This document shows, one piece after another, positions 202 through 27,067 of a stretch of 38,131 nt of DNA. A program made the position numbers and the translations under genes. The number at the start of each line of letters is the position of its first letter. Within the stretch, counting starts at the first letter, position 1. This stretch comes from an uncultured Candidatus Saccharibacteria bacterium (GTDB taxonomy: Bacteria > Patescibacteriota > Minisyncoccia > GWC2-36-17 > CAYHJU01): positions 1-38,131 of the forward strand of contig CAYHJU010000004.1 of NCBI GenBank assembly GCA_964357175.1, read 5' to 3'. Below the pieces are notes generated by a model. The model was not told the origin of the DNA and made no database searches. It saw only the letters and a list, made by a program, of their open reading frames with translations.

Positions 202-636
202 TTAGTCGTCGTCTTCGTGGCAGATGGCGAACACCCAGATGCCGTGATTTTGTCCATCGGTCAAGATATTTCTCAGAGTGGCGTTGAGGTTGTTCGTTCT
301 GAAGACATAGATGCTTCCGGCCATCTGAAAGTTGTTGGCAACCCACACCTCATATTTCTTGGCGTAGCAGTTGCCGTCATCGTCCAACGCGACCATGAAG
401 GCGTTTGTGCTGGACAGATCTTCTTCCTCGCAGGTGCCTTCGTACATGCTTCCACACGAAACGGCCTGCCAGTCAATGAAAGCGTCGGCGGGTGGGAGCT
501 TTTCCACCATTAAAGTGTTTATGTCCACCAGTCGTTCCGCGGCCTGGGTTGCCAGTGTCAGCGCGAAAACGAGAAAAAGAGCCAAAAACACACAAATGAA
601 GATCCTGCTTGGCGACAGCTTATTCAAGCTCAACAT
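202..636 (-). CDS. Hypothetical secreted protein (144 aa, signal peptide, 4 Cys in mature part)
   Basis: ATG at 636 preceded by GGGAGG SD; hydrophobic N-terminus ending in an AxA-like site; own promoter TTGACA(720-715)-16-TACAAT(698-693). The track start at 720 lies in the promoter. Confidence 0.7.
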   Translation of the reverse strand: MLSLNKLSPSRIFICVFLALFLVFALTLATQAAERLVDINTLMVEKLPPADAFIDWQAVSCGSMYEGTCEEEDLSSTNAFMVALDDDGNCYAKKYEVWVANNFQMAGSIYVFRTNNLNATLRNILTDGQNHGIWVFAICHEDDD

Positions 637-741
637 CGCGCACCTCCCTTTGAAAGACTTGCCGCCAGAACCCAGCGTCCCAGCTTCCACCCATTGTACT
701 CCTTTTTTAGATTCTGTCAATGGTGATTTGTGGTGTAGCAG

Positions 742-769
742 TTGACACGGTTCATTTTTTGGATAGAAT
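742..769 (+). promoter_or_regulatory. sigma70-type promoter of groESL
   Basis: TTGACA-16-TAGAAT directly upstream of CIRCE. Confidence 0.7.
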
Positions 770-774
770 TCTAA

Positions 775-801
775 TTAGCACTCCTGAAGTGCGAGTGCTA
801 A
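775..801. promoter_or_regulatory. CIRCE element (HrcA operator)
   Basis: Perfect TTAGCACTC-N9-GAGTGCTAA upstream of groES. Confidence 0.97.
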
Positions 802-826
802 GTATAAAATAATTGTAGAAATATTT

Positions 827-1117
827 ATGAAAATACAACCTTTAAACGATTATGTTCTTATAGAGCCACTCAACGCGGAACAAAAACTTAAAAGTGGCAT
901 AGTTTTACCAGATACAGCCGACAAGGAAAAATCCCAACAGGGGAAAGTGGTGGCTGTTGGTCCAGGAAAAATGCTTGAAAACGGTAAGAGACAAGCGCTG
1001 GAAATAAAAAAGGGTGATAAAGTACTTTTTACCAAGTACGGGCCGCATGAAATAAAAATAGAAAATAAAGAATATTTAATTGCCAAAGAAGAAGACGTTT
1101 TGGCGATTTTGAGTTAA
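827..1117 (+). CDS. groES: Co-chaperonin GroES
   Basis: MKIQPLNDYVLI...SGIVLPDTA...GKVVAVGPG; upstream of groEL. Confidence 0.98.
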   Translation: MKIQPLNDYVLIEPLNAEQKLKSGIVLPDTADKEKSQQGKVVAVGPGKMLENGKRQALEIKKGDKVLFTKYGPHEIKIENKEYLIAKEEDVLAILS

Positions 1118-1163
1118 AATTATTTATCAATTAATTTTTTAATACGCTCAAAGTCAGATTTTA

Positions 1164-1183
1164 CCTGCCTGCCGGCAGGCAGG
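1164..1183. repeat. 20-bp palindrome CCTGCCTGCCGGCAGGCAGG (REP-like)
   Basis: Perfect palindrome; related copies at 4697-4716, 13181-13224 and 29259-29274. Confidence 0.85.
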
Positions 1184-1215
1184 GATTTGATTTTTGAGAT
1201 TTAAGATTAAAACAT

Positions 1216-2871
1216 ATGGCAAAACAAATTGAATTTAATGAAAAAGCCCGTCAAGCATTAAAACGTGGCGTGGACAAATTGGCCAACGCTGTAAAAATAA
1301 CCCTGGGACCCAAAGGGCGCCATGTCGTTTTGGACAAAGGATTTGGATCTCCGCAAATCACAAATGACGGCGTGACTATCGCCAAGGAAATAGAGCTTGA
1401 AGATAGAATAGAAAATCTGGGCGCAGAACTTGTAAAAGAGGTGGCCACCAAGACGGGAGATTCAGTAGGCGACGGAACCACGACCGCGACAGTGCTGGCT
1501 CAAGTTTTGATAAATGAGGGAATTAAAGCTGTTTCCGGAGGAATTAATCCTATAAAAATGAGGAGGGGCATTGAAACAGCGACCGAAGAAGTTGTAAAAC
1601 ATCTGAAAAAAGAATTATCTAAACCGATTGTGCTTTCCAAAAAATCTGAAATAGCCAGAGTGGCGACAATTTCCGCCAAAAGCGAGGAAATCGGAAATCT
1701 TATTGCTGAGATTATAGAACAAGTTGGCAAGGATGGAGTGATAACAGTTGAAGAGTCGCAAACTTTTGGCTTGCAAAAAGAAATAGTTGAGGGGATGCAG
1801 TTTGATAGAGGATACATATCACACTATATGGTTACCAACACTGACAGAATGGAAGCGGTATACGAAGACCCCAAAATTTTAATAACTGATAAAAAAATCA
1901 GCGCCATAGCAGACATCTTGCCTCTTTTGGAAAAATTGGCTCAAACTGGCCACAAAGAATTAGTCATAATAGCTGAAGATGTGGATGGGGAAGCGCTGGC
2001 AACTTTAGTGGTAAATAAAATAAGAGGCACATTTCATACCTTGGCGATTAAGGCTCCGGCTTTTGGCGACAGGCGAAAAGAAATGCTGGAAGATATTGCC
2101 ATTTTGACGGGAGGCAAGGTCATCTCTGAAGAAGTAGGAATTAAATTGGAAAGCGCTGATCCAGAAATGTTGGGAAGCGCGCGCAAGGTCATCGTCACCA
2201 AGGACAATAGTGTCATCGTGGGCGGCAAAGGAAAGAAGTCTGACATAGAAAAAAGAATTTCTCAAATTAAAAATAATCTTTCCAAAATCGAATCGAGTTT
2301 CGACAAAGAAAAATTACAGGAAAGATTGGCCAAGCTCTCTGGCGGGGTGGCTGTGATAAAGGTGGGCGCCGCGACTGAAACAGAGCAAAAAGAAAAACGA
2401 GATAGGATAGACGACGCTCTTTCGGCAACCCGCTCTGCCATAGAAGAGGGAATAGTTATTGGAGGAGGAGTGGCGTTGATCCAGTGTATAGATAAACTTT
2501 TTTCCTTAGAAGAATCATTGAGACAAAAAGGAGACGCTGAAACCGCCATGGGCGTCGCTATCGTTTTGAGGGCCTTAGAAGAACCACTTAGACAAATCGC
2601 TAGCAATGCAGGTGTGGATGGAGGCGTGGCGGTTCATGAGGTTTATAGTAGGTTTAAAGCTGGAAAATTAAATGAGGGATTTAATGCTGAAAATGGCAAA
2701 TACGAAGATTTGTTTAAAGCCGGCGTGGTAGACCCGACAAAAGTTGTGCGTTCGGCTTTGCAAAATGCCGCCTCAATCGCTTCTTTGTTTGTTACTACCG
2801 AAGTTGTGGTGGCGGAATTGCCTAAAAAAGACGAAACCTCAATGCCGCACGCGCATTCGGGCGAATATTAA
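1216..2871 (+). CDS. groEL: Chaperonin GroEL
   Basis: [46 protein letters not shown] motifs. Confidence 0.99.
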
Positions 2872-25122: not shown

Positions 25123-25225
25123 CAATTTTCAATTTCCAATTCTCAATTTTCAATGAATTTTCAATGATTTAATTTTTAATTTAAAACTTTAATTTTTAAC
25201 TTTTCACTTTTAATTTTAAATTTTC
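25123..25225. repeat. Degenerate 6-7-nt tandem repeats (AATTTTC / TTTAAT)
   Basis: aattttc aatttcc aattctc aattttc aatg... followed by tttaat-type units. Confidence 0.55.
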
Positions 25226-25265
25226 TTCTACTTTCTATTTACTATTTTCTAAATTCTTTCGGGGA

Positions 25266-26303
25266 TTACTCTTCTTGAAAAGCGCTTATTATATCATCTA
25301 AATTTCCATCCATTATGTTGGCAATATTATGCCAGCTTTTTTGTATGCGGTGATCGGTGATGCGGTCCTGTGGAAAATTATATGTACGAATTTTTTCAGC
25401 TCTCTCGGCAGTGCCTATTTGAGATTTACGCAAACCTTCCTCCGTGCTTCTGCGCTTATCCTCTTCCATTTGATAAAGCTTGGAGCGCAATATCTCCAGC
25501 GCCAATTCTTTGTTGCGAGCTTGAGACCTCTCTGTTTGAGATCTGATGACTATACCTGTGGACGCGTGGATTAAACGCACAGCGGTTTCTACTTTGTTCA
25601 CATTTTGTCCTCCAGGTCCGCCAGAGCGGGTGGTCTCAAATTTGATGTCCTGTGATTTTATGTTTATCTTGGTTTCAGGCACTTTGGGTAAAATAGCGAC
25701 TGAGGCGGTAGAGGTGTGCACGCGGCCGCCTTTTTCTGTCTCGGGTATTCTTTGCACACGATGCACGCCACTCTCTTGTTTTAAAAGATTATAAACATTT
25801 TTGCCCGAAAGTGAAAAAACTATTTCTTTGTATCCGCCAATATCTGTGCGAGAAGAGTCCAATGTTTCAAGTGCGAATCCATTTCTTTCGGCAAAGCGGG
25901 AATACATTCTAAATAGATCTCCGGCAAAAAGCGCCGCCTCTCCACCCCCTGTGCCTGCCCGAATTTCAACGAGGGCGCCATTTATCTGTTCTGCCTTGGT
26001 AGACGTGAGTTCCTTGTATTCTTTTTCAAAGTCCGTGAGATTTTTTAAAAGTTGAGGCAATTCATCTTCTGCCATTTTTTTAAATTCGGATTCGTTTTCT
26101 GAAGACATTATTTTTTTATTTTCCTCTATATTTTTCTCAACGTCTTCAATTTTTTGAATTATAGCGATATGTTTTTGAAGTTCAGAAAATCTAGATGCTA
26201 TATCTTTAGCTTCTTGTGGATGAGCTGAAAAAAGCTCGGGGTCGGCGAGCTTTTTTTCTAAATCCGCGTACTCTTTTTTTATGTCCAAAAAACGCGAATC
26301 CAT
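25266..26303 (-). CDS. prfA: Peptide chain release factor 1
   Basis: [28 protein letters not shown] (PxT), [20 protein letters not shown]. Confidence 0.97.
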
Positions 26304-26313
26304 AAGAAATAAA

Positions 26314-26529
26314 TTATTTTTTACTCTTGGTGGCTTTAGCCGAACGTCTCTTGAATTTCTCTACGCGTCCTGCGCTGTCCATGATTTTTTCTTTTCCTGT
26401 ATAAAAAGGATGGCAGGCGGAGCAAATTTCTACGCGAAGTTCCGCTTTGGCAGAACCTACTTTAAATTTATTTCCGCAAGCGCATACCACGTCCGCTTCT
26501 TGGTATTGAGGATGTATTTTTGGTTTCAT
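26314..26529 (-). CDS. rpmE: 50S ribosomal protein bL31 (Zn-binding type)
   Basis: [29 protein letters not shown]. Confidence 0.98.
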
Positions 26530-26534
26530 ATCTT

Positions 26535-26594
26535 TTTACCCTGTTAAATGCCCTTTGGGCAATCCCACTTTGTGGGATTATTTAACGGGGTGAA
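26535..26594 (-). mobile_element. 60-bp MITE-like element (ACCCYGTTAAAT family)
   Basis: Reverse complement matches 34457-34516 at 56/60; terminal IRs enclose two small hairpins. Confidence 0.8.
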
Positions 26595-26701
26595 TTATTT
26601 TTTTAAATTAGACTGAATTCTATAAGATACTAACATAAATATATTTTTGTGGCAAGGAGCGGGCGGGCCTTACTATTATTTTGGAAAAGAAAAACCCGCT
26701 T

Positions 26702-26977
26702 CTAGGCGGGTGTCATTTTGAAATTTCTGCAAGTAAATTTTGCAAAAATAGAGCGGGAGTTTTTGTTTATCCAGATATATTTGATTTCTGGCTTTGTTTT
26801 TGAACATTGATGTATGATAGCCTCAATAAGAGAAATTGTCTGACCGGGCTCAATGATTTTATAATCATCTTCATTTTCGTCTTCAACCTTACAAATTTTA
26901 ATATCGGCTTCCGGAAAGCCGCTTTGGTAAACGATGTACTTTCCTGGGCTCAAGCCGCACTTCCTGAGAAGGGTCAT
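26702..26977 (-). CDS. Hypothetical protein (orphan unit)
   Basis: 91 aa; AAGGAG SD; conserved leader; stop codon lies in the terminator loop (26688-26711). Confidence 0.7.
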   Translation of the reverse strand: MTLLRKCGLSPGKYIVYQSGFPEADIKICKVEDENEDDYKIIEPGQTISLIEAIIHQCSKTKPEIKYIWINKNSRSIFAKFTCRNFKMTPA

Positions 26978-26983
26978 ATGCAG

Positions 26984-27067
26984 ACTCCTTTTTCAAGGTT
27001 CTTTATCTCTTCTACACCGTGTGGAAGAGATTGTGATTAATCTATCACGACTTGTTCAAAAGGTCAA
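26984..27067 (-). promoter_or_regulatory. Conserved ~85-bp leader, copy 4
   Basis: TTGACC-17-(TGa)TAGATT, ATCTCTTC..GAAGAGAT hairpin, GAACCTTGAAAAAGGAG. Confidence 0.88.

Follow-up and report, generated by a model that had tools for sequence, protein, structure and literature searches.

We have analysed a 38,131-nt stretch of DNA (the window), which is the entire contig CAYHJU010000004.1 (contig C4 below) of an uncultured Candidatus Saccharibacteria bacterium of the candidate phyla radiation (CPR), and find that a 12-nt motif, G-W-W-C-Y-U-U-R-A-A-A-A, recurs in the leaders of its genes with a strong Shine–Dalgarno (SD) sequence. The shared motif is real and is not an effect of chance or of base composition. 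Across the genome it marks over half of the strong-SD genes and is almost absent before the SD-less majority. Our preferred reading, held with slightly less than even confidence, is that the motif is a boxA-type RNA leader element at which NusB–S10 would probably gate translation, as at suhB in Escherichia coli. An initial annotation of the window had described about 13 dispersed units, each with a promoter, a boxA-like 12-mer, an SD, an open reading frame (ORF) and a terminator, and had proposed a boxA-tagged regulon or cassette system; the observation is partly confirmed and the interpretation partly supported.

The genome comprises 758 kb in 30 contigs, has 39% G+C and is rated 100% complete by marker genes. 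Genes were predicted with a crude codon-usage ORF caller, which divided the whole genome into 117 SD-led and 545 non-SD genes. The key tests were independent of this caller and followed a motif or an SD to a start codon and an open frame. Promoters and transcription start sites are predictions throughout; a search for RNA runs over positions 17101–27100 of the window listed none.

The regular expression G[AT][AT]C[CT]TT[GA]A[AT]AA has 40 matches in the genome, compared with a mean of 13.4 in ten order-3 Markov simulations. The k-mers GTTCTT, TCTTTG, CTTTGA and CTTTAA are enriched in the leaders of SD genes relative to those of non-SD genes, and GTTCTTT is present in 11 of the 117 SD leaders and one of the 545 non-SD leaders. 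The exact 12-mer occurs in 7/117 SD leaders, 1/545 non-SD leaders, 0/117 antisense strands of SD leaders and 0/557 coding samples, and with at most one mismatch it occurs in 19/117 SD and 12/545 non-SD leaders; 200 column-permuted motifs gave means of 0.04 and 0.64. When the count starts from the motif, 21 of 37 exact matches are followed by an SD, a start codon and an ORF, and 46 matches with at most one mismatch are followed in this way, as against 3–10 for 12 column-permuted motifs. Chance or composition as the source of the motif is ruled out by the Markov, antisense, coding and permutation controls.

Genome-wide motif discovery, which had been suggested as a check, recovers the motif de novo. 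We collected 337 sites with a strong SD, a start codon and an ORF independently of the caller and used the 107 with a closed upstream frame for expectation maximization from 40 random seeds. All 12 of the best solutions listed were G[ACT]WC[TC]TT[AGT]AAAA, with 54–58% of the sites occupied, and their consensus GCTCTTTAAAAA is near the published boxA consensus GYTCTTTAANA. In the matrix G1 stands at 91%, A and T share position 3 almost evenly and the best-conserved non-A positions are G1, C4, U6 and U7. A unit was defined by a matrix score of at least 10, an SD within 40 nt, a start codon and an ORF no shorter than 30 codons. By this definition there are 59 distinct units on 26 of the 30 contigs, compared with 0–6 for ten permuted matrices, and seven of the 59 lie within the window; the leader grammar first described is therefore real, but the figure of about 13 units falls well short of the genome-wide set. 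A matrix iterated on whole-genome matches drifted to T/A runs and was discarded, and groups of leaders formed by single linkage on shared 9-mers were set aside because low-complexity words had fused too many of them.

The 90 nt upstream of the other genes in the window show that housekeeping genes there have no SD, as is the case for groES, groEL, sortase, ctpA, L9, L27, sod, L10, L7/L12, RF1, PEPC and mraZ. The sequence upstream of such genes is A/T-rich, or the ATG lies 6–8 nt past a −10 box, as in leaderless mRNA. We note this leaderless appearance at 5419 and 10832 in the window, at the relatives' ftsH loci L059, L065, L070 and L072, and at many core genes; a crude SD-based refinement of starts shifted several leaderless or SD-less starts wrongly. 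The pattern AAGGAG-N5–10-ATG has 79 matches in this genome and 50–153 in 18 relatives of the same order, with about 10–44 for reversed-pattern controls, so SD use is modest across the order and similar to that found here. In two relatives in the order (L005 and L007) the anti-SD is altered, the 16S 3′ ends being CAUCUCCUUU and UUCUCCUUA in place of CACCUCCUUU, which suggests that SD use may be relaxed in parts of the order.

The spacing between motif and SD is short. The distance from the motif end to the 5-nt SD core peaks at −3 to +1 nt (25 of 59 units, abutting or overlapping) and is at most 10 nt in 47 of 59, with a tail to 34 nt. A predicted promoter-like site lies 6–40 nt upstream of the motif in 30 of the 59 units. 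The gap from the −10 end to G1 is 6–9 nt in ten units, in which the motif would begin at about +1, 11–16 nt in 13 and 37 nt in four. Translation starts at GTG or TTG in 24 of the 59 units.

Four units (named, like all window units, by the start codon: 6001, 9256, 19425 and 26977) share a 92-nt block that runs precisely from the −35 box to the SD, with unrelated flanks and ORFs. In this cassette a 5′ hairpin of 12 pairs, one of them compensatory (−14.4 kcal/mol), precedes AUAAA and the motif. Two further leader pairs with a hairpin precede unrelated ORFs (C2:26298/C7:11862 and C6:13481/C19:12339), and in a unit on C29 the order is motif, hairpin and SD. Among the units listed, a stable hairpin lies a few nucleotides upstream of the motif in at least seven, including the four cassette copies, and just downstream in one. 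Only three paralogous pairs occur among the 59 unit proteins, and the proteins of leader-sharing units are unrelated at E ≤ 1, in keeping with the original statement that a common leader precedes unrelated ORFs. Gene-family duplication as the sole cause is ruled out by these counts and by the unrelated ORFs behind shared leaders. When Rfam covariance models were run over the window, only two tRNAs reached the gathering score, and no cis-regulatory RNA family did so.

In the comparison suggested as a check, the motif matches an element in the genome's own rrn leader. There GTACTTTGATAA (C12:23350) follows a promoter and a hairpin and stands some 50 nt upstream of the 16S gene. At the corresponding place in the rrn leaders of six relatives we read by eye GTTCGTTGAAAA, GAACCTTAAAAA, GTACCTTGAAAA, GTTCCTTGAAAA, GTACTTTAAAAA and GTTCTTTTGAAA, which may be summarised as GWWCYTTRAAAA(C). 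In the seven genomes the element lies about 50–100 nt into the rrn leader, and no SD follows the rrn copies. The degeneracy of the rrn elements is that of the mRNA motif, including the near-even split between A and T at position 3. Perfect matches to GYTCTTTAANA, which is a γ-proteobacterial consensus, number 18 in this genome, nine of them before an SD and start codon. Baniulyte et al. (2017; PMC5725501) give this consensus and report 0–7 consensus boxA sequences near gene starts per γ-proteobacterial genome, and published work expects 'a few' per species. NusB–NusE recognise boxA nucleotides 1–8 according to PMC3177189, and these eight nucleotides are the stretch that holds G1, C4, U6 and U7 here.

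Profile searches located nusB (C11:15958–16341) and rpsJ, the gene for S10 (C3:13609–13893), and showed that nusA and nusG are also encoded. Of the Nus-related genes whose presence was to be checked, only rho was not found: the Rho_RNA_bind and TIGR00767 models gave no match in this genome rated 100% complete, and neither did the Inositol_P model for SuhB. Since Rho and SuhB were not found, protection from Rho-dependent termination is an unlikely role. We also note the string GTTCTTAACAAA about 6 nt upstream of the rpsJ start (C3:13893, minus strand), which is boxA-like with one T fewer and two mismatches to the 12-mer; it could reflect autoregulation of rpsJ by Nus factors, a mechanism that has been proposed for other phyla.

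Most of the unit genes are accessory or lineage-restricted. A Pfam scan (E ≤ 0.01) of the 13 originally quoted units and 39 of the 41 listed units outside the window (two with a 29-nt gap were dropped) assigned a family to 19 of 52 units (17 of the 39 outside the window), compared with 22 of 27 other window genes; equivalently, 33/52 units and 5/27 other genes lack a family (Fisher p = 1.5 × 10−4, the comparison set being window genes and not a random genome sample). The suspected enrichment for orphans is thus borne out. The description of the ORFs as mostly orphan holds for 11 of the 13 window units, which have no Pfam family, but the genome-wide set is broader. The 17 units with families outside the window include a divergent second FtsH, PrkA, SpoVR and peptidases of families M3, M16, M29, M50 and S41 (oligopeptidase F among them), and also patatin, Q_salvage, dCMP deaminase, β-CASP, GNAT and an Xre/MbcA antitoxin. 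Of the Pfam matches outside the window, one lies inside smc and is probably a false positive, and another is weak and falls short of the cut-off. The two FtsH genes differ in their leaders: that of the C10 copy is A/T-rich and SD-less, like that of the relatives' single FtsH, while the C8 copy (46% identical) has the motif and an SD. We note that prkA and spoVR lie in one cluster (C12:2352–8550), each with its own motif and SD. The protein of u17977 has six homologues in 5.8 billion proteins; no relative was found with this query in 18 other genomes of the order or, with the single protein, in genome contigs, where an alignment query found one distant relative (L157), and none was found in viral contigs.

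In its density of the motif this genome is an outlier, and so dense a grammar is not a general trait of the order or class. The strict pattern GWWCYTTRAAAA-N0–3-GGAG occurs 16 times here, 0–3 times in each of 18 other genomes of the order and, among 300 further genomes of the class, 0–5 times per genome; any match is present in 87 of 301 genomes, and reversed controls give 0–2 matches. Related metagenome contigs retrieved by way of PEPC (58–86% identity) hold three instances of the full grammar in 850 kb. The 80 PEPC-found metagenome loci share with the window only the aminotransferase–PEPC pair, so orthologous leaders could not be compared there.

The leader element is nevertheless not unique to this genome. 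The gene prkA is patchily distributed (21 of 200 other genomes of the class; absent from seven sampled genomes of the order), a distribution that is accessory-like. Of 20 intact prkA homologues (a split copy in G134 was excluded), 11 score at least 10 in the region −150 to +45, all with a strong SD, so that here a similar leader is kept. Two controls scored much lower, RF1 of the same class set with 1/14 and the PEPC loci with 2/68 (p = 0.009 and 3 × 10−7, with kin that are not independent). By eye, the motif in the prkA leaders of other genomes lies 8–35 nt from the SD. Among pepF homologues 3/15 score at least 10 and one more scores 9.4 with a perfect core, and 1/3 of the u21811 homologues score at least 10. 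The L157 homologue of u17977 (31% identical) has TTGACA-17-TAAGAT, GCTCTTTGACAA abutting GGAGG, and a TTG start.

On the boxA reading, the 59 or so units would be self-contained transcription units, each made up of a promoter, in some cases a 5′ hairpin, the boxA, a strong SD, an ORF and usually a terminator. The NusB–S10 heterodimer would bind boxA on the nascent mRNA as it does on rRNA and, as at suhB, would be in competition with the 30S subunit for access to the SD; we propose this competition because the boxA abuts or overlaps the SD, or lies within 10 nt of it, in most units. Translation of the accessory set would then be tied to the pool of free NusB and S10 and hence to the synthesis of rRNA and the assembly of ribosomes. 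As Rho was not found, only the translational step of the suhB mechanism would apply here, and not its Rho-termination step. A wider picture, which we regard as possible but rather doubtful, is that of a Rho-less CPR lineage with SD-less core genes, in which accessory and horizontally mobile genes would travel as plug-in expression modules and NusB–S10 a global translational governor of about 60 mRNAs (about 7–8% of genes), with a conserved core of prkA and others across the class.

Several points weigh against a NusB–S10-bound boxA. SuhB was not found by the profile search described above; in E. coli, suhB repression requires the complete Nus complex (PMC5725501). The pyrimidine core and the SD are able to pair (the minimum free energy, MFE, of the leaders averages −3.9 kcal/mol, and the MFE structure has 62% of the bases of the SD core paired), so a protein-free mechanism is possible. 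The A-run (positions 9–12) lies outside the 8 nt contacted by NusB–NusE and may simply belong to an SD context that is extended or rich in A; the assembly does not include the 16S 3′ end, and the A-run could pair with the 16S tail. The density peculiar to this genome (16 against 0–5, and three in 850 kb) would also fit a recent spread of leader cassettes by duplication. Finally, the boxA reading does not explain why NusB and S10 should gate small secreted or membrane orphans.

The alternative that survives best, although we consider it unlikely, is a cis-acting anti-SD hairpin in which UUCYUU pairs with AAGGAG or GGAGAA across an RAAAA loop, forming an attenuator or thermometer to which the boxA likeness is incidental. 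In fourU and ROSE RNA thermometers a U-rich stretch pairs with the SD; the leaders described here likewise have an SD-pairing U-rich stretch, and the gene set holds heat-shock-type protease targets (FtsH, M50 and S41). Such a hairpin would directly explain why the motif occurs almost only with an SD. It is predicted as GTTCTTTAAAAAGGAGAAC at −5.9 kcal/mol, GGTTCTTTAATTTGAAAGGACC at 3401 is listed as a stem-loop, and native leaders, with the SD pairing given above, are 0.6 kcal/mol more stable than those with the 12-mer shuffled. Compared with fourU and ROSE, however, the stems are very short and weak and show no covariation; the mean MFE is −3.9 kcal/mol, and 13 of the 59 leaders are weaker than −2. 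There is no unit-specific complementarity (−3.86 native against −4.20 with the 7-nt core of another unit), and A is as frequent as U at position 3, though only U would lengthen the stem. The conserved G1 and A-run are left unexplained by a structure in which they are unpaired or in the loop, and rrn leaders carry the same 12-mer without a following SD.

Less probable still is an extended ribosome-binding site or translational enhancer, the U-rich and then A-rich stretch serving as a standby or S1 site, or pairing with rRNA, to give very strong initiation against a background of genes without an SD. The ε sequence of the T7 gene 10 leader is an enhancer that pairs with rRNA, and the leader resembles AACTTTAAGAAGGAGA of that T7 leader. 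The motif abuts the SD in 25/59 units, and given the 16S tail CCUCCUUUUU of relative L011 an A-run before GGAGG could extend SD pairing. In 26 of the 59 units, however, the motif is 4–34 nt from the SD, and in the prkA leaders of other genomes 8–35 nt. The most specific positions, G1 and C4, are not accounted for by an A/U-rich enhancer, no complement of the core is present in the 1.2 kb of 16S examined (3′ end outside the assembly), and the relatives use the SD as often (50–153 against 79 matches) yet without the motif. A DNA operator at which a repressor or activator of a stress, starvation or host-interaction regulon would bind between +1 and +40 is improbable: the coherent theme of the genes (PrkA, SpoVR, second FtsH, six peptidase families, patatin, nucleotide salvage), the repressor-like position of the motif start 6–9 nt past the −10 box in ten units and its conservation before prkA across families would suit it, but the motif is strictly on the sense strand, its variants share no dyad symmetry (compare GAACCTTGAAAA with GTTCTTTGAAAA), its −10 distance varies from 6 to 40 nt while the SD distance is the constrained one, and the same element stands in seven genomes' rrn leaders, where boxA is expected. 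The enhancer and operator explanations fit fewer observations.

BoxA and the Nus factors are textbook components of rRNA and phage antitermination, and to our knowledge only a handful of mRNA targets are known. The arrangement described here resembles the boxB–boxA–boxC antitermination leader of rrn operons in that its 12-mer is shared with the rrn leaders of the order and in that at least seven units have a boxB–boxA-like order of hairpin and motif. It differs in that the units run into an SD and a short ORF rather than a long untranslated RNA and that most are monocistronic, with an intrinsic terminator within 0.2–2 kb, which leaves little for processive antitermination to act on. Phage λ nut sites consist of boxA and boxB, and prophage morons are promoter–gene–terminator modules; like these, the units are autonomous promoter–ORF–terminator modules with accessory genes and a boxA near the transcript 5′ end, but we found no N-like protein or phage context, they lie among housekeeping genes on 26/30 contigs, and u17977 had no relative in viral contigs.

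The closest known system is the suhB 5′ untranslated region of E. coli, where, according to Baniulyte et al. (2017; PMC5725501), a boxA in the mRNA leader 6 nt from the SD represses translation; putative boxA sequences precede other genes of γ-proteobacteria as well. The leaders here similarly place a boxA-consensus sequence a few nucleotides from the SD, but there are about 59 units in 0.76 Mb, over half of the strong-SD genes, and neither Rho nor SuhB, both of which take part at suhB, was found. That boxA can stand in an mRNA leader is known, and what is new is the scale, the tie to a distinct SD-led gene class in CPR and the modular cassettes. Full-text searches of the literature found no paper on boxA in CPR, nor, among the 12 papers listed, on SD or leaderless use in CPR. 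If the boxA reading is true, Nus factors would be a global translation regulator; on the wider and rather doubtful picture, the regulon would be an order of magnitude above any known Nus regulon, and the whole accessory, secreted and stress proteome would be coupled to the making of rRNA and ribosomes. The boxA reading would also offer a testable handle on the control of lineage-specific and surface or secreted genes in ultra-small CPR bacteria, which have few transcription factors. The clean two-class architecture of translation initiation, with an SD-less or leaderless core and boxA plus SD accessory genes, matters for CPR gene calling, start prediction and heterologous expression of orphans.

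All 13 leader strings quoted in the initial annotation are present in the window as written and on the strands given, but they do not share the 12-mer equally: eight score strongly (13.8–16.1), three are intermediate (8.5–10.8) and two are poor. A promoter-like site is listed for eight of the 13 and not for the rest, and a correct-strand hairpin just past the stop codon is listed for ten and not for 17372, 19425/18859 or 23142; a promoter and a terminator for every unit had been claimed.

The four cassette copies are on the minus strand, and none of their ORFs has a Pfam family. In u6001 (5485–6088; score 16.0) the promoter TTGACC-17-TGnTACATT (6060–6088) and the 5′ hairpin precede the boxA-like GAACTTTGAAAA (6011–6022), an SD, a 162-residue ORF (5513–6001) and a terminator (5485–5504). 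The second copy, u9256 (9009–9345; score 16.1), has GATCTTTGAAAA (9268–9279), a hydrophobic 63-residue ORF (9065–9256) and a terminator at 9009–9032. The third, u19425 (18812–19514; score 15.3), carries GAACCTTGAAAA (19437–19448) and a TTG start, followed by ORFs of 112 (19087–19425) and 75 residues (18859–19086); the hairpin at 18812–18838 is listed for the plus strand only. The same GAACCTTGAAAA stands at 26990–27001 in u26977 (26694–27067; score 15.3), with a 91-residue ORF (26702–26977) and a terminator at 26694–26711.

Two neighbouring minus-strand units have paralogous promoters and leaders. In u21811 (20613–21876; score 15.6) the promoter is TTTACA-17-TATGCT and the boxA-like GATCTTTAAAAA (21822–21833) abuts the SD; the 385-residue ORF (20654–21811) matches Nuc_deoxyri_tr2 and, weakly, NUDIX, and the terminator is at 20613–20638. 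Its counterpart u22277 (21907–22344; score 15.9) has GTTCTTTGAAAA (22292–22303) and a terminator at 21907–21925, but the ATG opens only 29 codons and a 112-residue ORF (21932–22270) lies in a different frame, so this gene is probably broken. The remaining strong units are u13558 and u17977, neither with a Pfam family. The former (13181–13623, minus strand; score 13.9) has a weak promoter read by eye, GCACATTAAAAA (13570–13581), the SD GGGG, a 99-residue ORF (13259–13558) with a hydrophobic N-terminus, and two terminator hairpins (13181–13260). The latter (17915–18838, plus strand; score 13.8) has the promoter TTGATA-18-TACAAT, GCACATTTAAAA (17953–17964), a GTG start, a 272-residue ORF (17977–18795) and a terminator at 18812–18838.

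Three units have intermediate motifs. In u17372 (17332–17759, plus strand; score 10.8) the −10 box TATAAT (17332–17337) precedes GGACCTTGAAAT (17342–17353), with the SD 18 nt beyond and a 114-residue ORF (17372–17716) without a Pfam family or a listed terminator-like hairpin. The unit u23142 (22531–23212, minus strand; score 8.5) has TTGACA-16-GATATT with a TG, GCCCTTTTACAG (23164–23175), a TTG start and a 203-residue ORF (22531–23142), also without a Pfam family. In u24056 (23977–24851, plus strand; score 9.5) GCTGTTTTACAA (24013–24024) is followed by a strong SD and, 31 nt on, by the start of a Peptidase_M50 ORF (24056–24805), with a terminator at 24830–24851. The two poor units are on the minus strand and lack a Pfam family. 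In u3401 (2886–3478) the promoter TTGACT-17-TGnTAGTAT (read by eye) precedes a perfect 8-nt core GTTCTTTA within 3416–3427, whose non-consensus TTT tail makes it poor by the 12-nt matrix; a motif–SD hairpin GGTTCTTT/GAAAGGACC, a 153-residue ORF (2940–3401) and a terminator (2886–2931) complete the unit. In u636 (170–720) the promoter is TTGACA-16-TACAAT and the SD is strong, but the quoted motif AGTCTTTCAAAG (648–659) fails the matrix with a score of −0.8; the 144-residue ORF (202–636) has a signal-peptide-like N-terminus, and the terminator is at 170–192.

Two further repeats were noted among the SD-less genes. An inverted repeat TTAGCACTC-N9-GAGTGCTAA at about 770–800 in the window, 3′ of a TTGACA/TAGAAT promoter and upstream of groES (827–1117), resembles a CIRCE/HrcA operator. 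A perfect 20-nt palindrome CCTGCCTRCCGGCAGGCAGG at 1164–1183 has 19 exact copies genome-wide (29 with a looser pattern), the other 18 being on C1, C3, C5, C6, C7, C9, C10, C11, C12, C16, C19, C20 and C24. It frequently stands in the leader of a housekeeping gene that has no SD, groEL for example, and may be a hallmark of this class; one copy is within the rrn leader (C12:23293) and another, at C1:51350, is directly 3′ of a tRNA-like sequence.

The 16S gene (C12:23414–24592) is cut by the contig end. It matches the model at model positions 9–546 and 663–723, and these two separated matches imply that there may be extra sequence inside the gene, as in the insertions common in CPR 16S genes. A genome search returned no large-subunit rRNA, while cmscan located the last 207 nt of 23S and the 5S at the end of C29 (L053). 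This rRNA end is directly followed by a terminator and then by the C29 unit with its boxA–hairpin–SD order.

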